Below, piece by piece: positions 2,693 through 16,900 of a stretch of DNA of 64,000 nt. The notes under the pieces were generated by a model. It searched no databases. It was given only the letters and a program-made list of their open reading frames with translations, and had not been told where the DNA came from. Position numbers and translations under genes: made by a program. Origin of the DNA: an uncultured Bacilli bacterium (GTDB taxonomy: Bacteria; Bacillota_I; Bacilli_A; RF39; UBA660); contig CANQXW010000001.1 in NCBI GenBank assembly GCA_947627925.1, positions 13,314 through 77,313 of the forward strand. The letters run 5' to 3'. The stretch's first letter is position 1. Each line of letters starts with the position of its first letter.

Positions 2693-4766
2693 TGTGACCC
2701 TCTACTTCAATAATATTTTTAAATAATCTTTTTTGATTTTTATGAGATATATAAATAATGGTTTTATTCTTAAAATAATTCTTAATATTTTTAATTATTT
2801 TACTTTCTAACTTTTTATCTACTTCACTTAAAGCCTCATCTAAAATAATAATACTCGCCTTCTTCAAAAGTCCTCTTGCTAAAATTATTCTTTGCCTTTC
2901 ACCTCCTGATATGTTTTTAGATGCACTTTCTACTAAAGATTCATATCTTAATCCTTTTTTCGAAACAATATCTTCAATTTCACAGATATCACAAATATCT
3001 AAAAAATCTTGATGGGCAATATCTCTACTGGCTAAAATATTTTCTCTAATTGTGCCCGTAAATAATTCTTCATGTTGGCCAATATATAAAATATTATTTC
3101 TAATCGTATTAATATCAATATCCTTAATATTTTCTTTACCTATGAGTATTTCTCCTTTATTTATTTGGTAATCTTTATTAAGTAAATGACATATTGTACT
3201 TTTCCCTGATCCACTGGGTCCATCTAATAAAATATGCGTATTTTCTTTAATCGTAAAAGAAACATCATCTAAAACATTAAAATAATTATTGTAAGAGTAA
3301 CTAACATTTTGAAAGACAATATCGCCTTTTAGACTATCTTTAATTTTATTATTATCTTCTTCTTCAATTCCTAAAAACTCTGCAATTTTTCCAAAAGAGG
3401 CTTTAATATAATTAAATGTCGGAATAACCCCAATTAAATTTTTAAGAGAATCAATGCCATAAGATAAAATAATATTAAAAGTAAATAAATTAATTAAATC
3501 TAACTTTTTATGAATAACTAAATATAATCCCACCGAATTTAGAATAAAGAAACAAAGCTCTAGTAAAACATCTTTTCCTAAATTAGTGAAATTTAAATAA
3601 CTATTAAATTCATAATTATTCCAAAAATATTTAGCTAAGACTTTTTCAATTTTCTCTAAAGCAATATTTTTAATATTTAAATTTTTAATACTTTCTAAAT
3701 TGGTAATATTTTCATATATTACACTATTAAAATCAGTTTCATAATTTAAATTTTCTAAAACTTTATAGTAAATACTTTTACTAATAACTATCCCATAAAA
3801 ACTATAGATAATAATAAAGATTATTAAAATAATTGTTAGTGTTTTATTTAAAATAAATAAAATCACTAATGATAATATAAGCAAGAGCATATCCAAGAAA
3901 GATGAAACAAAAAGATCCGTAAAAAGTTTTTTAATGAAAGAAAGTTCTGATATTCTTGTTACTATCTCTCCTGGCATTCTACTCTTTATATGTTTTAAAG
4001 GAAGGTTAAATAAATGATTTAAAAAACTAGGATAAATGATGGTATCAAGGCGATTACTTAAATGGTTTTCATAATAACTTTTAGCATATATTGTTAATAT
4101 TTTACATATAGTTAATAAACCAAAGGCCATAATTAAATACTTAAAATAGTTCTGATTATAACTAATTAAATTACTTCCTACTTTTAAGTAAAAAGAAGTA
4201 ATAATAGCTAGGATTGTCCAAATAAAACTTAAATAAATTATTTTACTAATAAGAAACTTTTCCTTAAAAAGAATATTAATAAATAACTTTTTAATGGTTA
4301 GAGATTCATCCATTTTAATTAAATTATCTCTTACTTTAGAAAGGATGATATGACCGGTAAATAATTTATTAAATTCTGTTAAAGCCATTTTCCTATATCC
4401 AATGCTTGGGTCCATGAGATATACCATATTTTTCCTAATGTCTTTAACAACGACAAAATGCTCTAAACCATTTTCGAGTTTTAAATGGGCAATAAAGGGA
4501 AAAGTTAAACTATTTATAGTTAAATCATGCTCCAAAACCCCTTCGGAATCAAAGCCCCATTTATTGAAAGCTCTAACTATTTGATAAGCATTCGTGCCAT
4601 TATAATCCGTTAAAGTATCTTCCCTTAACTTTTCTAAGGTAATATAACCACCATAATACATAATAATCCACTGCATACAACATACGCCACAGTCTTTAAA
4701 ATCATGTTGCAAAACTGGTTTTAAATTTTGCATATTTTTCCTCCCTTCACTATTATTATTCGTCAC
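2640..4766 (-). CDS. bacteriocin-processing ABC transporter, peptidase C39 + permease + ATPase (LagD/ComA family)
   Basis: 708 aa. The N-terminal C39 motif is QHDFKDCGVCCMQ with catalytic Cys, then EHFVVV (His) and VYLMDPSIG (Asp). Six TM helices follow. Walker A is LDGPSGSGKST, the ABC signature is LSGGERQRIILAR and Walker B is IIILDEA. Confidence 0.9.
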   Translation of the reverse strand: MTNNNSEGRKNMQNLKPVLQHDFKDCGVCCMQWIIMYYGGYITLEKLREDTLTDYNGTNAYQIVRAFNKWGFDSEGVLEHDLTINSLTFPFIAHLKLENGLEHFVVVKDIRKNMVYLMDPSIGYRKMALTEFNKLFTGHIILSKVRDNLIKMDESLTIKKLFINILFKEKFLISKIIYLSFIWTILAIITSFYLKVGSNLISYNQNYFKYLIMAFGLLTICKILTIYAKSYYENHLSNRLDTIIYPSFLNHLFNLPLKHIKSRMPGEIVTRISELSFIKKLFTDLFVSSFLDMLLLILSLVILFILNKTLTIILIIFIIIYSFYGIVISKSIYYKVLENLNYETDFNSVIYENITNLESIKNLNIKNIALEKIEKVLAKYFWNNYEFNSYLNFTNLGKDVLLELCFFILNSVGLYLVIHKKLDLINLFTFNIILSYGIDSLKNLIGVIPTFNYIKASFGKIAEFLGIEEEDNNKIKDSLKGDIVFQNVSYSYNNYFNVLDDVSFTIKENTHILLDGPSGSGKSTICHLLNKDYQINKGEILIGKENIKDIDINTIRNNILYIGQHEELFTGTIRENILASRDIAHQDFLDICDICEIEDIVSKKGLRYESLVESASKNISGGERQRIILARGLLKKASIIILDEALSEVDKKLESKIIKNIKNYFKNKTIIYISHKNQKRLFKNIIEVEGHNELLKNQLSKTIAPENS

Positions 4767-7723: not shown

Positions 7724-8167
7724 ATGGTAAAAGAATATTTATTTGAAAACTTAATTGATTTAAGAGAATCTAGAGGATTAAAGCAAAAAGATATGGCTAA
7801 AATATTACATGTATCAAGACCTAATTATACAAGATGGGAAACTAAAGCCACTATTATACCTTTAAAAAAACTTAATGAATTATGTAACTACTTTAAAGTT
7901 GATATGGATTATATTGTAGGTTTTAAAAGAAAAGCTAAACCTATGCATAATGATAATGTTTTAGATAAAAAAGTAATTGGGGAAAATATTCGTAAAATAA
8001 GACACAAATATAATTTGAGTCAAAATGATTTAGCTAATATTTTAAACACTACTCATTCAGTTATAAGTTATTATGAAAATGGTAAAACTTTAATTCTTAC
8101 TGCCTTCTTAATTGAAATATGTGAAAGATATAATGAATCAATGGATCAAATATGTAATCGGAAATAA
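7724..8167 (+). CDS. XRE-family transcriptional regulator with two tandem HTH domains
   Basis: Two Cro/C1-type HTH segments: LKQKDMAKILHVSRPNYTRWE and LSQNDLANILNTTHSVISYYENG. Confidence 0.75.
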   Translation: MVKEYLFENLIDLRESRGLKQKDMAKILHVSRPNYTRWETKATIIPLKKLNELCNYFKVDMDYIVGFKRKAKPMHNDNVLDKKVIGENIRKIRHKYNLSQNDLANILNTTHSVISYYENGKTLILTAFLIEICERYNESMDQICNRK

Positions 8168-8172
8168 TTTTC

Positions 8173-8199
8173 AATTTGGCGAGCACTGATCGCCAAATT
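8173..8199. repeat. 27-bp hyphenated palindrome P1 (AATTTGGCGA-GCACTGA-TCGCCAAATT)
   Basis: Perfect 10-bp arms. It sits in a degenerate block translating F-N-L-A-S-T-D-R-Q-I-N-F, a decayed copy of the YhcG FSIGQ..QLTWSH segment. Confidence 0.8.
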
Positions 8200-8389
8200 A
8201 ACTTTATTTCACTATCTTAAGTTATTACGAAAGAATTTATTATATTAATTATGTTATTTAAAATAACTTATCTAGCAGAAAGTTTAGAAATTAAATTAAA
8301 AGTAAAATTATGGAAAGAATATAAAGAAAATATTAAATTAATAATTAATATATAATTTTAAAAAAATTGATAATTAATAATACTTTGCA

Positions 8390-8416
8390 ATTGGCCAATC
8401 ACTGATTGACCAATTT
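8390..8416. repeat. palindrome P2 (AATTGGCCAATCA-C-TGATTGACCAATT)
   Basis: Same family as P1. The flanking frame reads FAIGQSLIDQFT*. Confidence 0.8.
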
Positions 8417-8558
8417 ACTTAACCTTATATTAGAGAACTTTTATAGTAAAAATTAATATTTGTAATAAAAAAATTATTTTTTTAATATGTTCGACAAAAA
8501 GTGACAAAATAAACATTTCTTGTTTGATATAATACAACCTTATTAAGGAGAAATTATT

Positions 8559-9494
8559 ATGCATGAACAAGATTATTTTAATGAAATAAGAAGTATTATT
8601 GAAAATGTGGAAGTAAATAAAAAAGTTAGAGAGTATAAAAATAATTATGATGATTTAATAGCTAAATGGAATATTGGGAAATTACTAGTAGAAGCCCAAG
8701 GTGGAGAAAAAAGAGCCAAATATGGTAATAACTTAATAAAAAGATGGTCAGAAATATTTGTGAATGAATATGGAAAACAATACAGTGTTACAAATTTAAA
8801 ATACATGAGACAATTTTATTCAGCATTCTCAATTGGTCAACCAGTGGTTGGCCAATTAACATGGTCTCATATCATCAAATTATTACCCATTAAAAATGAA
8901 AATGAAAGAAATTATTATATTAACTAAGTTATTTTAAATAATTTGTCTAAAAGAGAATTAATTAATGAAATTAAAAGTAATGCATTTAATAGACTGTCCT
9001 ATGCTGATAAAGAAAATATTAAATTAATTAATAATGAAGAAGATAAATATAATTTAACTCTATCAGATATGATTAAAGATCCTATTATTATTAAAACGGA
9101 TAAAAATATAAATAACTTAAATGAAAAAGCTATTCATAAATTACTTATTGAAATGCTAGAGCAAAGATTTCTAGAGTTAGGTGTGGGATTCACTCTTGTT
9201 GGTCATGAATATAAAATAATTAAAGATAATATAACTTATAAAATTGATTTATTATTCTTTAATGTTAAATTAAATTGTTATATACCTATAGAAATTAAAA
9301 ATCGAAATATAACACCAGAAGATATTGGACAAATAGAATTTTATACACATTTAATAGATGATAATATTAAAGAAATATATAACAATCCAAGTATTGGTCT
9401 TATATTAGTTAAAAAGAAAAATAAATATGTTTTAGAATATGCTACAGGAAAAAACAATATTTTTGTTTCTAGTTATTTATTAGAAAAAATTTAA
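8559..9494 (+). pseudogene. yhcG: YhcG/DUF1016 PD-(D/E)XK nuclease gene, copy A, split by an in-frame TAA at 8925-8927
   Basis: ORFs 8559..8927 and 8943..9494 together carry NLKYMRQFY, QLTWSH, SKRELINEI, FTLVGHEY..IDLLFF..IEIK and PSIGLILVKK, the hallmarks of DUF1016_N plus YhcG_C PDDEXK. Copy B has CAA (Gln) where copy A has the TAA. An extended -10 (TGaTATAAT) is at ~8523. Confidence 0.75.
8831..8857. repeat. palindrome P3, inside the yhcG-A coding sequence (AATTGGTCAACCA-G-TGGTTGGCCAATT)
   Basis: It encodes I-G-Q-P-V-V-G-Q-L, immediately before the conserved TWSH motif. Confidence 0.85.
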
Positions 9495-9624
9495 AAAATA
9501 ATATATTATTGGTTTTATACCTCATTATTTGAATTAAAACTATATTAAAAATGTCAGAAATGTTTGTTTAGAACAATATTGTCAAAATAACGGTTTTATA
9601 TACAATAATTTCTTATGAGTTTCC

Positions 9625-9651
9625 AATTGTCCAATCAGTGATTGGACAATT
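9625..9651. repeat. palindrome P4 (AATTGTCCAATCA-G-TGATTGGACAATT, perfect 13-bp arms)
   Basis: The flanking frame reads YEFPIVQSVIGQLSLSY*. Confidence 0.8.
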
Positions 9652-9728
9652 AAGTTTGTCATATATAATATAATTATTAATACTCTAAAGAAATGGTTAA
9701 AATATGAGCAATTTTATTCAACATTTTC

Positions 9729-9755
9729 AATTGGTCACGCAGTGCGTGGCCAATT
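9729..9755. repeat. palindrome P5 (AATTGGTCACGCA-G-TGCGTGGCCAATT), in a ~65-codon YhcG N-domain pseudogene fragment
   Basis: The frame reads YEQFYSTFSIGHAVRGQFNLTWIHIKSLLIEQKKLGNFYNVSKRW..., homologous to copy A RQFYSAFSIGQPVVGQLTWSHIIKLL. Confidence 0.8.
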
Positions 9756-9831
9756 CAATTTAACATGGATTCATATTAAAAGTTTATTAATAGAACAAAA
9801 GAAATTAGGCAATTTTTACAACGTTTCAAAA

Positions 9832-9852
9832 AGGTGGCGCAATGGGCCACCT
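9832..9852 (-). terminator. GC-rich hairpin G1 (AGGTGGC-gcaatgg-GCCACCT) downstream of the DUF4143 ATPase gene
   Basis: A T-run follows on the minus strand (…GCCACCTTTTTG). It shares GGTGGCGCA…GCCACC with G2. Confidence 0.55.
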
Positions 9853-9915
9853 ATTTATTTGGACTTATATTAAATTTTCTTACTAGCAAAAGATGAAAAC
9901 GAATAAATTATATTT

Positions 9916-11232
9916 TTAACATAAAGTATTAATTAGAAATGCAGCATATAAAGGAACTGATTTAATTCTTGTTTCAGAACTATAACCAAAATCTTTTAAA
10001 CTAATTCTAATTTTATATTTAGGATGATATAAATCATCATAAACTTTTAAACTTTTAGCCTGAGTATGTTCCTCAGCCTTAACTTCAATAGGAATTATTC
10101 CATCATTCTTAGTTGAAATTAAAAAATCAACTTCAGAATCCCTTAATCCTTTCCAATATAATAAATCTAATCCATTAGCTTTCAGTTGATTAGCTACATA
10201 ATTTTCCGTAATAATGCTTTTATATATTTTCATATCATCAAGAAGAATAGTTTTAATATCATTGTTTACTAACCTATTAAAAATTCCTACATCTGAATAA
10301 TAAACTTTGAATTTTTCATTATCTACAAATCCCAATAATGGCTTTTCTGGTTTTTTAACACATTTACATAATTGAACAATATTGCTTTCAATTAACCATT
10401 CTAATGGCAATAAGTATTCTCTAGATTTAGCATCTGTTTCAATTACGGAATATTGAAACTTTTTAGAGGCATTTTGTAATTGTGATGGTAGCGAATTATA
10501 TATATTTTTTATTTTAAGGGTTTCGTATATATTTTTCACATGATTATTCATATCATTCATATAATCTTCTATTATATTATTAAGTATAGATAAATCATAA
10601 TTATAATTATCATCTTTGCAACTAACCAATGCTTTGACACTTTCTGGCATTCCTCCAGATAACATATATCTTCTATAATACTCTATCGCTTTTGTATGAG
10701 TTACTCCCATCGATTCATTATTTTTAAAACAAGATTTTATTTTATTTAATAATAGGTCTTGATCAAACGCCATTAAAAATTCTTCAAAATCCATTGGATA
10801 CATATATAGTCTAGTAACTTTTCCAACCGGAAAAGGTTTATCTAGTCTAGCAAGTTTTACTCCAAGTAAAGAACCAGCGCAAATAATTCTAACATTGCTA
10901 TGCTTCTCATTAAAAAATTTTAGCTCTGAAATCAACTCTTCGCTAACTTGTATTTCATCAATAAATAAAACACTATCTTCTTTATCAAAATCAAAATCTA
11001 ATAATATTTTTAAATCATTATACTTTTTTTCTGATGAAACATCAGAAGCATATAATTTAACAACTTCTTTATCATTTAATAAATTTATTTTTTTATAATT
11101 TTTAAATTCATTTTTACAAAATTCATCAATTATAAACGTTTTTCCACATTGTCTAACTCCCAAAACAAGTAATGGTTTAAAATCCGTTTCGTTTTTCCAA
11201 TTAATTAAATCATTATATATCTTTCTTTTCAT
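9916..11232 (-). CDS. AAA+ ATPase with DUF4143 domain (COG1373-type ATP-binding protein)
   Basis: 438 aa. The Walker A LVLGVRQCGKTF and overall architecture match the DUF4143 ATPase family. Confidence 0.8.
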   Translation of the reverse strand: MKRKIYNDLINWKNETDFKPLLVLGVRQCGKTFIIDEFCKNEFKNYKKINLLNDKEVVKLYASDVSSEKKYNDLKILLDFDFDKEDSVLFIDEIQVSEELISELKFFNEKHSNVRIICAGSLLGVKLARLDKPFPVGKVTRLYMYPMDFEEFLMAFDQDLLLNKIKSCFKNNESMGVTHTKAIEYYRRYMLSGGMPESVKALVSCKDDNYNYDLSILNNIIEDYMNDMNNHVKNIYETLKIKNIYNSLPSQLQNASKKFQYSVIETDAKSREYLLPLEWLIESNIVQLCKCVKKPEKPLLGFVDNEKFKVYYSDVGIFNRLVNNDIKTILLDDMKIYKSIITENYVANQLKANGLDLLYWKGLRDSEVDFLISTKNDGIIPIEVKAEEHTQAKSLKVYDDLYHPKYKIRISLKDFGYSSETRIKSVPLYAAFLINTLC

Positions 11233-11444
11233 CAGTTTTCACCTTTGCTTTAATTAACCTAATTATAGCATACTTACACCTTTTTGCACCCACTTTTCAT
11301 GAAAATTTACACTTTTTTGTAATCACATTTGAATTTAATTAATTGAAAATCAATTAAATTCTTGTTAAAATTTCATTTTTATGCATTCTTATAGTATCAT
11401 TAACAAAATTTAAAATATATGCATAAATTTTATCAATTATTTCC

Positions 11445-11471
11445 AATTTGGCCGGCATTGTCGGCCAAATT
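11445..11471. repeat. palindrome P6 (AATTTGGCCGG-CATTG-TCGGCCAAATT)
   Basis: The frame reads SNLAGIVGQIT*. Confidence 0.75.
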
Positions 11472-11511
11472 ACATAATCTCACTTTCTTAAACTATTATC
11501 AATAATGATGA

Positions 11512-12225
11512 GAGCAAAAGAAATTAGACAATCCTACTTTCCAAATTGGGCCCACACTGTGTGCCCAATTGACATATTCTCATTTTAGAGAATTATTACC
11601 CATTAAAAATGAAAATGAAAGAAATTATTATATTAACCAAGTTATTTTAAATAATTTATCAGTTAGAGAATTAATTAATGAAATTAAAAGTAATGCATTT
11701 AATAGATTATCTTATGCTGATAAAGAAAATATTAAATTAATAACTAATGAAGAAGATAAATACAATTTAACACTTTCTGATATGATTAAAGATCCCATTA
11801 TTATTAAAACGGATAAAGATATAAATAATTTAAATGAAAAGGCTATTCATAAGTTATTAATTGAAATGCTAGAGCAAAGATTTCTAGAGTTATGTTTAGG
11901 ATTTGCTCTAGTTGGTCATGAATACCCTTTAAAAATAAATAATAAAACTTATCGTACTGATTTATTATTTTTTAACTATGAAATAAATGCTTTTGTCGTT
12001 GTCGAAGTTAAAAATGAAGAATATAAACCATCACAAATTGGTCAAATAAAATTTTATATGGATTATATAAATAAGAATATTAAAAAAGAACATCATGCTA
12101 AAACAGAAGGAATATTAATAGTTAAAGAAAAAGATAAATATGTTATGAAGTATATAAATGATAAAGGAATTTATATAACATCATTTAAATTATTAAATAA
12201 TATGAAAGATAAAATTTTAAAATAA
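11512..12225 (+). pseudogene. yhcG: YhcG/DUF1016 PD-(D/E)XK nuclease gene, copy B, N-terminally truncated (no ATG; frame opens at 11512)
   Basis: LLPIKNENERNYYINQVILNNLSVRELINEIKSNAFNRLSY…LVGHEY is near-identical to copy A (~90% nt, ~95% aa over ~110 aa). The PDDEXK core that follows is only ~45% identical. The upstream N-domain is missing. Confidence 0.6.
11544..11570. repeat. palindrome P7 (AATTGGGCCCACAC-TGTGTGCCCAATT), in frame with yhcG copy B
   Basis: It encodes FQIGPTLCAQLTYSH, continuous with ORF 11569..12225. Confidence 0.8.
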
Positions 12226-12230
12226 TTATT

Positions 12231-12257
12231 AATTTGGCACGCAGTGCGTTCCAAATT
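12231..12257. repeat. palindrome P8 (AATTTGGCACGCA-G-TGCGTTCCAAATT)
   Basis: The frame reads INLARSAFQIK. It lies 6 bp after the yhcG-B stop. Confidence 0.75.
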
Positions 12258-12271
12258 AAGATAATGGAAAA

Positions 12272-12290
12272 GGTGGCGCAGCGTGCCACC
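12272..12290. terminator. GC-rich hairpin G2 (GGTGGCGCA-g-CGTGCCACC), bidirectional terminator between yhcG-B and the CDP-alcohol phosphatidyltransferase gene
   Basis: T-runs on both strands. Confidence 0.55.
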
Positions 12291-13921: not shown

Positions 13922-13977
13922 CTACCTATATTATAAAGGAAAAAAGACAAAATAACTAGTCTTCTAGTCATCTTGTC

Positions 13978-16900
13978 TTAAGCTTTATTTATTTCCACTA
14001 AAACTTTAATACCATTAACATTAACTTCTTCTTTTTCTAAATGTTTAGAAATTATTTCTTTAGCTAATGTTTCATTTTGAATATAATCACTAAATTTGGT
14101 AATAACTTCTTTAAATTCCTCACTATCATAATAGATAATAATCCGATCACTAACATCTAAGCCTATAGTTTTGCGCATATTTTGAATTTTCGAAATGAAT
14201 TCTCTCGCATGGCCTTCTAAAATTAAGTCTTCCGTTAAGTTCGTATTTAGAATAATAAATAGATTATCCATTACTCCGACATTAAAGCCTTCTTTAGAAG
14301 CAATTTTTACTTCATACATTTCTTTCGTAATAACTGTATCATTAAATTTCATTTCTTGATGAGTTAAATCATCTAAAGTAGTATTTTGTAAAAATTCTTC
14401 ATATTCTTTAATTTTAGGTCCAAATACTTTACCTACTTCTTTATAATTAGGTTTTAGAGAAATATTCATATATTTAGAAAGTTCAGCTTCATGATTAATT
14501 TCTTTAACATTTAACTCTTCTTCAATTAAAGGAATTAAATCAGTAATCTTATTATAAACAGCACTTTCAATAATGGCTTCTTTAAGAGGTGTTCTTACTT
14601 TAATCTTGGCATCCTCTCTCACCATTCTTCCTAGAGAGATTAAATTACGAACTAAATCCATCTTTTCTTCTAAGGCCTCATCAATTAAACTTTCATCATA
14701 TTTAGGAAAGTCTTCTAAATGCACAGAATAATTGCCGGTTAAATGCGTATAGATTTCTTCACTAATATAAGGAACAACGGGAGCAATTATTTTAGATAGG
14801 CCTACTAAAACCTCATAAGTAGTTTGATAAACAGCTTTTTTAGAATTATCTAGAGTGCTACCCCAGAACCGATTCCGGCATCTTCTTATATACCAATTTG
14901 ATAAATCTTCTGATACAAAATTCGTAATAATTCTGACAACTTTATTTAAATCGTATTCTTCATAACCATTAGTTACTTCTTTTAACATACTATTATATTT
15001 AGAAAGTAACCATTTATCTATTTCTTCTCTATCCTCTACTTTAACATCACATTTATCAATATCAATATTATCCGTCGTGGCATACATACTGAAGAAATTA
15101 TAAGTATTTTTTAAAGGATTAAAGAATTTTGAATAAACTTCTTTTAACCCATCTTCATCAAATTTTAAAGGAGTCCAAACGGGAGATACATAAGGAAGAT
15201 ACCATCTTACAGTATCAGCGCCATACTTCTCCATTATCGTAAATGGTTCAATGGCATTACCTTTCGATTTATGCATCTTTTGCCCATTTTTATCAAGTAA
15301 TAATTCATTGACTAATACATTTTTATAAGGAGATACACCTTTAACAAAAGTGGAAATTACTAAAAGCGAATAAAACCAGCCTCTTGTTTGATCAATGCCT
15401 TCACAAATGAAATCAGCCGGAAATTGACTTTCAAATAATTCTTTATTTTCAAAAGGATAATGGTATTGGGCAAAAGGCATTGAGCCAGAGTCAAACCAGC
15501 AATCAATTACGTCTTTACATCTACTCATGGCTTTGCCACATTTAGGACAAGTTATATGAATATCATCGACATAAGGACGATGAAGTTCAATAGACTCATC
15601 AATATCTTCAATAGCTTTTTCCACTAGTTCACTCCTAGAACCAATCATTTCATCATGACCACATTCACACCGCCATAAAGGAAGAGGTGTTCCCCAATAA
15701 CGGGAACGCGAAATAGCCCAATCATTTAAATTCTCTAACCAATTGCCAAATCTTTTTTCGCCAACATAAGCAGGATACCAATTAACAGAATTATTATTGG
15801 CAATAATTTTGTCTTTTAATTTAGTAACCTCTAAATAAAATGATGGTTTAGAATAATAAATAAGGGGTGATTTACAACGCCAACAATGCGGATAATTATG
15901 GACCATTTTTTGCTTTTTAAATAATTTATCATTTTCTTTTAAATATTTGATAACTTCTTTATCAGCATCAAAAACAAGCATACCCTTCCACGGTCCTTCG
16001 GTATAGCAACCATCTTCACCCACCGGATTTAGATAAGGCAAATTATAATTTTTACCCACATTCGCATCATCAGCACCATAAGCGGGAGCAATATGGACAA
16101 TACCAGTTCCATCTTCCATGGTAACATAATCATCACAAGTGACAAAGAAAGCTTTCTTATTAACTTTTAATTCCGGAATTAATTGTTCATATTCGGTATA
16201 TTCTAAATCTTTACCTTTATAAGTTTCTAGTACTTCATAAGAATCGCCTAAAACTTTAGAGGCTAATTTTTCGGCAATGATAAATTTATAATCCATACTT
16301 TTAACTAAAACATAATCTTCATGAGGATTAACACAAATAGCCACATTAGCAAGAAGTGTCCATGGCGTTGTTGTCCAAACTAAGAAGTAAACATCTTCAT
16401 CCTTTTTCTTCATTGGAACAATAACAGTTTCGACTGCTACTTCTTTATAACCTTGGGCTACTTCATGAGAAGCAAGTCCTGTTCCACATCTAGGACAATA
16501 AGGAAGAATCTTACTACCTTCATAAAATAAACCTTCATCAAAAAATTTCTTTAAAATCCACCATTCGGTTTCAATATAATCATTTTTATAAGTTATATAT
16601 GGATCATTTAAATCAATAAATTGACCCATTTTATTAGTTAAATCAGCAAAAGCTTTTTCATTTTCCCAAACCGCTTTTCGACATTCTTCATTAAATTTTT
16701 CAATGCCATAGTTTTCAATATCGCCTTTAGATGAAAAACCTAAATTTTTTTCCACTTGGACTTCTACGGGAAGACCATGAGTATCCCAACCAATTTTTCT
16801 TAATACTTTATAACCTTGCATCGTTTTATATTTACAAAAAGTATCTTTTAAAAATTTGGCTAACATATGATGAAGTCCTGGCATTCCATTCGCCGTAGCG

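Follow-up and report, generated by a model that had tools for sequence, protein, structure and literature searches.

A palindrome at one codon position of YhcG/DUF1016 genes, and its extra copies in a gut Bacilli genome

Introduction

Template switching at short inverted repeats is described as having two outcomes, homogenisation of the arms and inversion of the spacer (PMC8604942, PMC7202029), and quasi-palindromes have been reported to be rendered 'perfect or more perfect' in this way (PMC7202029). Here we describe a family of 27-bp near-palindromes that belongs to yhcG genes, the members of a widespread, uncharacterised nuclease family often found in restriction-modification and mobile-element loci (PMC9881135, PMC4316617). 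Our starting point was a 64-kb stretch of DNA from an uncultured Bacilli bacterium (assembly GCA_947627925.1, contig CANQXW010000001.1, positions 13,314 to 77,313; hereafter the window). The source genome is low in GC (~27%) and uses the standard code, and it is most closely related to uncultured gut Bacilli known from metagenomes of rabbit and other guts.

DNA sites that act in cis are known inside the genes of the proteins that use them: the pT181 origin lies in repC, the phiX174 origin in gene A and parS in spo0J. The proteins concerned are Rep or HUH initiators or ParB CTPases with shown activity at their sites, and the pT181 family combines a conserved nick region with a divergent specificity repeat. 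For YhcG/DUF1016, a search of open-access full text yielded papers on classification, genomic context and typing, and we found no description of a palindrome in them; subscription journals lay mostly outside the scope of this search. We report that, in organisms as far apart as gut Bacilli and Escherichia coli K-12, YhcG genes have a DNA palindrome whose codon position is fixed.

Results

A hairpin scan of the entire window, with thresholds of at least 10 pairs and at least 4 G-C pairs, found 27-bp near-palindromes at 8173, 8389, 8831, 9625, 9729, 11445, 11544 and 12231 (P1 to P8), in which 12, 12, 12, 13, 12, 12, 12 and 12 of 13 arm pairs form, respectively. An initial annotation of this DNA had claimed eight copies; all eight were confirmed, but two further hairpins, at 9829-9855 (P9) and 12272-12290 (P10), had been missed. 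Counting these, there are ten family members in ~4 kb, and the same scan found zero further copies in the remaining window outside 8.1-12.3 kb. The general form is W4-N7-CA-N-TG-N7'-W4, 27 bp in every copy, with outer arms of AATTGG, AATTTGG or AATTGT. The literal consensus first proposed, CAATTGG-N6-CA(G/C)TG-N6-CCAATTG, proved too narrow, fitting four copies only, and the centre of P6 is CATTG. The strict core AATTGG-N15-CCAATT has four matches in the window, compared with 0.07 expected. Folded as single-stranded DNA, all ten copies form a stem of ~12 bp with a loop of 3 nucleotides (nt), at -6.5 to -11.1 kcal/mol and with z scores of -2.5 to -6.8.

The palindrome is part of YhcG/DUF1016 genes, where it spans the last base of codon 91 to the second base of codon 100. 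Two gut Bacilli loci, L001 and L003 (loci are numbered with the prefix L), together hold four intact yhcG genes, each with a 13/13 palindrome at gene nt +273 and all with different inner arms. A protein-based scan of species-representative genomes yielded 79 gut Bacilli loci; many of these genomes carry five to ten yhcG genes or even more, commonly as tandem arrays of two to four. For 116 non-redundant YhcG N-domains we scored the best 27-mer palindrome near the motif. It was perfect in 47, and reached 12/13 in 21, 11/13 in 19 and 10/13 in 18. In 103 of the 116, the distance from its start to the invariant Trp codon is exactly 31 nt, and 112 share one frame; among the 47 perfect palindromes, 45 have this canonical offset.

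In this frame the centre is the first base of the fifth codon of the site, and of the 13 pairs, four join first codon positions to each other and nine join a second position to the wobble position of a partner codon. Since second positions pair with partner wobbles, palindromy dictates nine wobble bases. We therefore redrew the same peptide with each gene's own codon usage. The genes have 11.9 matched pairs, compared with 6.4 under this synonymous-codon null (p<0.01 in 96% of genes), and other same-frame 27-mers of these genes average 4.0 pairs. Peptide motif or codon choice as the sole cause, the explanation that the initial annotation had set against its own reading, is thus excluded.

The arms also covary, as had been proposed from the window alone. 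In an ungapped alignment of 92 distinct sites, the arms pair in 92.4% of cells, compared with 63.3% after shuffling, and the covariation score is 0.661 vs 0.145, with 0/500 shuffles as high. Cells changed on both sides number 328, vs 117 in shuffles, and a shift of the partner columns by 1-3 positions makes the signal collapse. The lone central base is G in 41 sequences and C in 43. Among groups of sequences with identical arms that differ at the centre (n=11), 8 differences are G<->C. This exchange is among the rarest spontaneous point substitutions, and it is the product expected from inverting a 1-nt spacer.

These patterns bear on the idea that the palindrome is selected as a hairpin of yhcG mRNA, which through processing, stability or translation pausing would limit a toxic nuclease. 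Covariation is the classic signature of RNA structure, the stem of 12 bp with its 3-nt loop is stable, and some copies lie in likely 5' and 3' untranslated regions. However, mismatches that G.U pairing would tolerate are no commoner on the sense strand than others (20 G.T vs 20 A.C), the bases next to the centre are complementary, which a loop does not need, and the centre toggles between G and C. Palindromy also persists in decayed, probably untranscribed copies outside genes, and a search of Rfam gave no match at E<=1. We consider an mRNA hairpin improbable, and conclude that the constraint acts at the DNA level and is strand-symmetric.

No other stretch of the protein alignment varies as much as the peptide encoded by the palindrome, which falls between the conserved MRQFY..FP and (T/S)W(S/T)H motifs. 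In an AlphaFold model (mean predicted local distance difference test score, pLDDT, 73), amino acids (aa) 90-101 form the loop that connects helices 77-89 and 102-108, and pLDDT falls locally to 63. The palindrome is thus predicted to code for a permissive loop at the protein surface, immediately ahead of the invariant N-domain Trp. Pairing of second with wobble positions would let such a loop code for many peptides yet stay palindromic. The conserved ends and centre would follow from a few residue constraints (Ile, small, hydrophobic, Gln or Lys, Leu) combined with palindromy: Leu (TTx) and Gln or Lys (xAA) on the right give AATT, and hence Ile, on the left, and a small residue (xCA) followed by a hydrophobic one (NTG) gives the CA-N-TG centre. 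No sequence-specific reader need therefore be assumed for these positions. The N-domain has a weak similarity to the ParB helix-turn-helix (HTH), Foldseek returned only weak PD-(D/E)XK matches for the C-domain (EndoMS/NucS, MGME1, Cas4-like), and the PDB gave no sequence match for YhcG. An HTH that co-evolves to read the arm sequence is unlikely, as the HTH region is nearly invariant while the arms vary.

The initial annotation had treated the family as a local peculiarity, but the palindrome is built into YhcG/DUF1016 genes across phyla. We sampled 12 homologues on plasmids, which represent seven phyla and are 28-62% identical to E. coli YhcG; 11 of them have the palindrome at aa 91-101, as the best or second-best 27-mer of a ~4-kb locus. 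The match is 13/13 in Burkholderia and Clostridium saccharoperbutylacetonicum, 12/13 in Citrobacter and Pseudarthrobacter, 11/13 in Legionella and Hymenobacter, and 10/13 in Nostoc, Aeromonas, Rhodococcus, Thiospirochaeta and Fusobacterium; only the Ilyobacter homologue has no palindrome at this position. The groups with the palindrome thus include Proteobacteria, Actinomycetota, Bacteroidota, Cyanobacteria, Spirochaetes, Fusobacteria and Clostridia. Extra copies of the same sequence lie just upstream or downstream of the Pseudarthrobacter, Clostridium and Fusobacterium genes. An integrase or recombinase gene is adjacent in 4 of the 12 plasmid loci, and two of these overlap the yhcG reading frame, an arrangement that probably makes one operon. 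The tyrosine/serine recombinase loci are L092 (245-2508), L097 (1459-3050), L086 and L091, from a Citrobacter IncHI plasmid, Ilyobacter, Burkholderia and Hymenobacter. The Aeromonas DUF1016 gene lies between hsdM and hsdS.

We also searched metagenome contigs from the DNA side, with the pattern AATTG-N6-CASTG-N6-CAATT, which leaves six pairs free (chance that all pair, 2.4e-4). There were 127 matches, 51 of them perfect and 46 at 12/13. At least 11/13 pairs form in 106; 80 of these fall inside open reading frames (ORFs) that match a YhcG profile and 3 within 2 kb of one, whereas 1/21 of the non-palindromic matches falls inside such an ORF. The archetype AATTGTGCAGACA-S-TGTCTGCACAATT, which codes for I-V-Q-T-L/V-S-A-Q-L/F, recurs in unrelated taxa with genome GC of 38-62%. 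The scan also returned 23 near-perfect intergenic palindromes (e.g. L100 943, L104 3255, L150 4031/4059, L186 2603 and L202 274). They come from diverse genomes (GC 38-62%), some stand in adjacent pairs, and no YhcG gene was detected on the same stretch; they may be old fossils or free-standing sites.

This distribution lends weight to another explanation, in which the palindrome is a cis-acting DNA site of YhcG itself, as duplex, cruciform or hairpin, and selection keeps the site perfect. The helical, HTH-containing N-domain would serve for binding and the PD-(D/E)XK domain for action on the site, copies outside genes would be extra sites or decoys, and the purpose could be autoregulation, self-marking or the promotion of duplication or conversion of yhcG cassettes. 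Such a role is compatible with template switching. Retention across phyla, the location of 83/106 palindromic matches in or beside YhcG genes, the same-sequence copies that flank three of the plasmid genes and the integrases or recombinases beside four would all fit. So would the likeness, weak in both cases, of the N-domain to a ParB HTH and of the C-domain to EndoMS/NucS-type nucleases. Sequence-specific reading is nonetheless unlikely, given that the variation of the arms is unmatched elsewhere in the protein and the HTH is near-invariant, and the ends and centre are explicable by coding constraints plus palindromy. The intact-looking L036, L048 and Ilyobacter genes do without the palindrome; in L036 and L048 the loop is shorter. 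We regard a cis-acting site as possible, although unlikely.

We then placed the window copies in their genes. The region reads, from left to right, XRE HTH gene, P1-P2, yhcG-A with P3, P4-P5-P9, ATPase gene, P6, yhcG-B with P7, P8-P10, and a convergent CDP-alcohol phosphatidyltransferase gene. The XRE-type double-HTH regulator gene (7724..8167, + strand; Pfam HTH_3 and HTH_19) is the conserved left border of the yhcG islet and also stands left of yhcG in the syntenic loci L001 and L083. In L001, two intact yhcG genes in tandem (315 and 311 codons) stand between these HTH and transferase genes; in L083 there is one yhcG between them, apparently frameshifted (two tblastn pieces overlap near nt 3468). 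Both window genes belong to the YhcG family, which is defined by DUF1016_N (PF17761) and the PD-(D/E)XK domain YhcG_C (PF06250) and has 3676 homologues at E<=1e-10: yhcG-A matched at 6e-26 in its N-part and 9e-36 in its C-part, and yhcG-B matched YhcG_C at 1e-29.

The gene yhcG-A (8559..9494, + strand; 311-codon type, DUF1016_N plus YhcG_C) is 81-86% identical to intact 311-aa proteins and had been taken to be live. An in-frame TAA at 8925-8927 inactivates it: yhcG-B and relatives have CAA at this codon, number 123 of yhcG-A, and the stop leaves ORFs of 122 and 183 aa. Thus, yhcG-A is either a pseudogene or dependent on readthrough. yhcG-B (11521..12225, + strand; 315-codon type) is a pseudogene that lacks its first ~80 codons and a start, has in-frame stops upstream, and retains in Pfam terms YhcG_C and the last 45 positions of DUF1016_N. 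A further yhcG remnant (~aa 88-160) covers 8163..8345 on the + strand, as seen in an alignment with L083 and in tblastn pieces at 8168-8227 and 8229-8321. Compared with L083, it has lost 349 bp by deletion, comprising the promoter and 89 codons from the start of the gene, up to a point ~10 bp 5' of the palindrome, and its flank is 27% diverged, with small deletions. Its palindrome, P1, is the ortholog of the L083 in-gene palindrome, with 25/26 arm positions identical and the centre flipped from G to C.

Two of the ten copies have an assigned strand, + in both cases. P3 (8831..8857; AATTGGTCAACCAGTGGTTGGCCAATT, 12/13) lies within yhcG-A, codes for IGQPVVGQL and starts 31 nt before the Trp-102 codon; P7 (11544..11570; AATTGGGCCCACACTGTGTGCCCAATT, 12/13) is in frame with truncated yhcG-B, as the initial annotation had it, and is fused to the 3' two-thirds of that gene. 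P1 (8173..8199; AATTTGGCGAGCACTGATCGCCAAATT, 12/13) is the palindrome of the remnant just described, P5 (9729..9755; AATTGGTCACGCAGTGCGTGGCCAATT, 12/13) sits in a yhcG remnant at 9697-9834 (aa 80-132), and P6 (11445..11471; AATTTGGCCGGCATTGTCGGCCAAATT, 12/13, centre CATTG) sits in one that translates to NLKYMHKFYQLFPI... The remaining copies are P2 (8389..8415; AATTGGCCAATCACTGATTGACCAATT, 12/13), an orphan upstream of yhcG-A whose right flank is similar to that of P7; P4 (9625..9651; AATTGTCCAATCAGTGATTGGACAATT, 13/13), also an orphan; and P8 (12231..12257; AATTTGGCACGCAGTGCGTTCCAAATT, 12/13), an orphan 6 nt past the yhcG-B stop. P9 (9829..9855; AAAAGGTGGCGCAATGGGCCACCTATT, 11/13) is of a KGG type and terminator-like on both strands, and P10 (12272..12290), a GGTGGC-type hairpin akin to P9, is a likely bidirectional terminator between yhcG-B and the convergent transferase gene. 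The earlier view that every copy lies in a YhcG-like block holds clearly for P1, P3, P5, P6, P7 and P9 and weakly for P2 and P4, but fails for P8, which has none.

Synteny with L001 and L083 traces the copies to fragments of the YhcG N-domain, in line with the initial annotation. The array has decayed through deletions and a nonsense codon, its gene order is unlike that of L001, and two dead genes and remnants of ~50-180 bp are left. By this comparison of sequences, the islet between the HTH and CDP-alcohol transferase genes is a decayed, rearranged tandem yhcG array. There are ten copies in 4 kb because the islet holds dead tandem yhcG genes and remnants, with one palindrome each. The AAA_14/DUF4143 ATPase gene (9916..11232, - strand; Pfam) lies between both yhcG genes and outside the element; it had been suggested as a partner, but AAA_14 occurs among only 3/119 neighbours of related loci and its presence is incidental. 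The neighbours of gut Bacilli yhcG genes are housekeeping genes and XRE regulators.

An intrinsic terminator signature (GC-rich hairpin plus T-run) is present at 8173-8199, 9832-9852 and 12272-12290 only, and the in-gene copies have no T-run. As P9 and P10 belong to the same palindrome family, yhcG fossils may have become terminators. The KGG-type palindrome of P9 also occurs at the in-gene position in L012. Some orphan copies lie 5-11 nt past an upstream stop codon (P1 and P8 in the window, L013 3964 and L053 3977). Two other hairpins were seen in these loci. A 36-bp imperfect palindrome, AAGACAAAATAACTAGTC...GACTAGTCATCTTGTCTT-like, lies at 13944-13979 of the window between fmt and ileS, and also in L001 at 12604; a hairpin GATGTGGTTAAG...TTAACCACATC, unrelated to the CA-N-TG family, lies ~1.4 kb downstream of yhcG pairs (L046 2615, L052 3105, L055 3406, L067 1927).

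About 60 further copies lie outside genes, up to ~1.3 kb from yhcG genes, and many have decayed yhcG flanks. Some form dense arrays, with ten in the 1 kb upstream of the L021 gene and nine or more in L040. Remnants identified from their flanks alone, with the palindrome site masked, retain at least 10/13 pairs even where flank aa identity has fallen to 33-50%. In one pair of orthologous non-coding arrays (4.8% spacer divergence) there are 2 compensated double changes, compared with 0.05 expected, and in a second pair there are 4, compared with 1.2 expected. The centre changed in 2/5 and 2/7 hairpins of two such array pairs. Indels in the arrays remove entire hairpin units, with limits at conserved hairpin ends, and the arrays thus grow and shrink in tandem-repeat fashion.

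The arms of the orphans drift at about the spacer rate, which tells against a cis-acting site, as does the fact that extra copies near genes have decayed yhcG flanks and are thus remnants, not purpose-built. We also considered purifying selection on the orphans and set it aside, the signal being inconsistent: P1 is conserved above its flank (p=0.01), yet arrays drift. Hypermutation of the arms was rejected as well, since seven close gene pairs (<10% flank divergence) have identical arms. In gene pairs at 10-20% flank divergence, arm differences are at or above the third-codon-position rate.

Multiple copies, the dense intergenic arrays in L021 and L040, and metagenome orphans with no YhcG gene nearby could also suggest a small mobile palindromic repeat, inserted in yhcG and nearby DNA in the manner of a repetitive extragenic palindrome (REP), a miniature inverted-repeat transposable element or a Rickettsia palindromic element (RPE). 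In genes, however, the palindrome always occupies the same codon and frame, its copies differ in sequence and are absent from the other 60 kb of the window, and the orphans carry yhcG-derived flanks. No REP-associated tyrosine transposase (RAYT) or other transposase accompanies it in the window region or in the most frequent neighbour families, and no 27-mers inserted at varied positions of unrelated genes with target-site duplications were seen. A mobile repeat is hardly credible, and the suspicion that the family might be a generic REP-like repeat of the whole genome can be dropped.

The initial annotation had further suggested silent cassettes for gene conversion of the N-domain. In such a reading, the extra copies would be silent donors and the palindrome a recombination hotspot that swaps N-domain segments among yhcG paralogues. 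Tandem arrays of 2-4 paralogues (L010, L056), strongly unequal left and right flank divergence in some gene pairs and array indels bounded by conserved hairpin ends would suit such exchange, and one E. coli truncation stops precisely at the end of a hairpin (below). But the extra copies are decaying remnants of ~50-180 bp, with stops and frameshifts, and hybrid mismatched palindromes, expected from crossovers, are uncommon. Change points between flanks cluster past the palindrome, at the start of a highly conserved region, and thus follow from rate heterogeneity; breakpoints by maximum chi-square were confounded by indels and then by the shift to this region. No recombinase was found near yhcG in the gut Bacilli loci (119 neighbours, listed Pfam families). 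We conclude that donor cassettes are very improbable. In L003 (1-1446 and 18368-19336), the second yhcG pair adjoins conjugation genes (TraG-like, TraC-like), with a PDDEXK_2 gene 7 kb off, so some yhcG copies at least border mobile DNA.

In E. coli K-12, yhcG has three tandem in-frame 27-bp palindromes 39 bp apart (L006 8130-8234; gene nt 303-407), at the same place in the N-domain. The gene is present in 4465/5426 complete E. coli genomes and varies in this region. A cattle strain (strain 109, L221) has an intact yhcG with one hairpin, through an in-frame 78-bp deletion, and an O111 strain has an 80-bp deletion and a frameshift. In a common truncated form (Ec387, L218 2501-3302), yhcG stops exactly with the final base of hairpin 3, and the gene of a 101-aa transposase comes next; this could be the junction of a hairpin-adjacent insertion or deletion. 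In a divergent allele, hairpin 1 is the archetype AATTGTGCAGACA.TGTCTGCACAATT, compared with AATTCGCCAGACA.TGTCTGGCGAATT in K-12-type alleles, a triple compensated change. yhcG is one of the six length markers of the LSPA-6 (lineage-specific polymorphism assay) typing scheme for O157:H7 (PMC3514354), and variation in the hairpin repeats probably explains its use as such a marker.

Discussion

We conclude that the palindromes in and around yhcG genes originate from the genes themselves, are conserved family-wide, are symmetric at the DNA level and undergo fast compensation. The explanation that we favour, and hold to be probable, is that of an inherited coding palindrome which lies in a permissive loop of the protein and is kept perfect by template switching from one arm to the other. 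The palindrome would be maintained in DNA, and not via protein or mRNA. During replication, one arm would be copied from the other, by template switching or hairpin-templated synthesis, so that a mutation in a single arm would be either erased or transferred to the other arm, and the lone central base would occasionally be inverted. We infer this process from the sequences compared here, in which both arm homogenisation (compensated doubles) and spacer inversion (8/11 G<->C) were found. Together with the symmetry of mismatches, they favour template switching or hairpin-templated repair, one of three options raised by the initial annotation, as the maintenance process. Near-universal retention probably requires some selection as well.

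Several points weigh against this explanation. Neutral upkeep predicts palindromes in many gene families and frequent loss over deep time, whereas this one is largely confined to one family and near-universal within it. The inner nine pairs are perfect in 64% of intact genes, compared with 43% of orphans (p=0.016), which suggests selection or a gene-linked process and is equally a point for a cis-acting site. So is a second 27-bp palindrome in some subfamilies, with the motif RAEYGxQIVxTLSxQL, 108 bp upstream of the canonical one (L163 5638 and 5746, L172 4220 and 4328, on metagenome contigs); L194 has two copies 78 bp apart. A 1-nt spacer cannot loop within a strand, and the central pairs therefore need intermolecular switching. 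Finally, template switching would account for substitution patterns drawn from small samples (centre flips, n=11; compensated changes, n=6).

A bolder form of the cis-site idea is that the palindrome is the cognate cruciform or hairpin of the YhcG nuclease, its arms an address or immunity code and the orphans extra sites. We consider this doubtful. If true, yhcG would be a self-referential nuclease cassette, self-regulating, self-duplicating or competing with paralogues, which would be categorically new, and the palindrome would give a first functional handle on a widespread family of defence islands. In any case, it offers a concrete hypothesis for the target of YhcG. Where odd hairpins form dense arrays near these genes, they can be interpreted as what is left of dead yhcG copies. 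The palindrome is also a clear natural example of concerted evolution at the DNA level within coding sequence. It is extreme in its conservation across family and phyla, in overriding codon choice and in outliving its gene.

Among known systems, a CRISPR array does not apply, as all repeats differ, spacing is irregular and no Cas gene occurs among the listed neighbour families. REPs, with the bacterial interspersed mosaic elements that they form, and RPEs are likewise short, GC-rich, imperfect palindromes in many copies, sometimes clustered; RPEs can sit in frame within genes, as does the YhcG palindrome, and gene conversion has been proposed to keep REPs alike. However, REPs are genome-wide, extragenic, RAYT-linked and of one consensus, and RPEs measure 100-150 bp and occur in many unrelated genes, whereas YhcG palindromes differ in sequence, occupy a fixed codon and are restricted to a single gene family and what remains of it. 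The window region has no RAYT/Y1 transposase, nor is one represented in the 25 Pfam families that are most frequent among the 119 neighbours.

The attC sites of integrons resemble the YhcG palindrome in being defined by structure, with conserved outer bases and a variable inner stem, and in forming arrays next to cassettes. They are 57-141 bp long and imperfect, have extrahelical bases, follow ORFs and need an adjacent IntI, none of which holds here: the YhcG palindromes have no bulges, the window region has no integrase, and the neighbour families listed for the gut Bacilli loci include none. Like the pT181, phiX174 and parS sites, the YhcG palindrome is a palindromic or hairpin-forming element in the coding sequence of a DNA-acting protein; unlike them, it covaries into many different perfect palindromes, and YhcG is an uncharacterised PD-(D/E)XK nuclease.

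The YhcG palindrome also resembles the quasi-palindrome hotspots of the Ripley model, the quasi-palindrome reporters in E. coli thyA and lacZ, and yeast genes. In both, arms are homogenised, single mutations become paired, the spacer is inverted (here, the central G<->C) and several neighbouring codons change together (PMC7202029, PMC8604942). Those hotspots are sporadic sites in single genes or strains. The YhcG site, in contrast, is fixed at one codon position family-wide and across phyla, with hypervariable arms whose nine wobble bases are set by the partner arm, and with orphan copies that outlive the gene.

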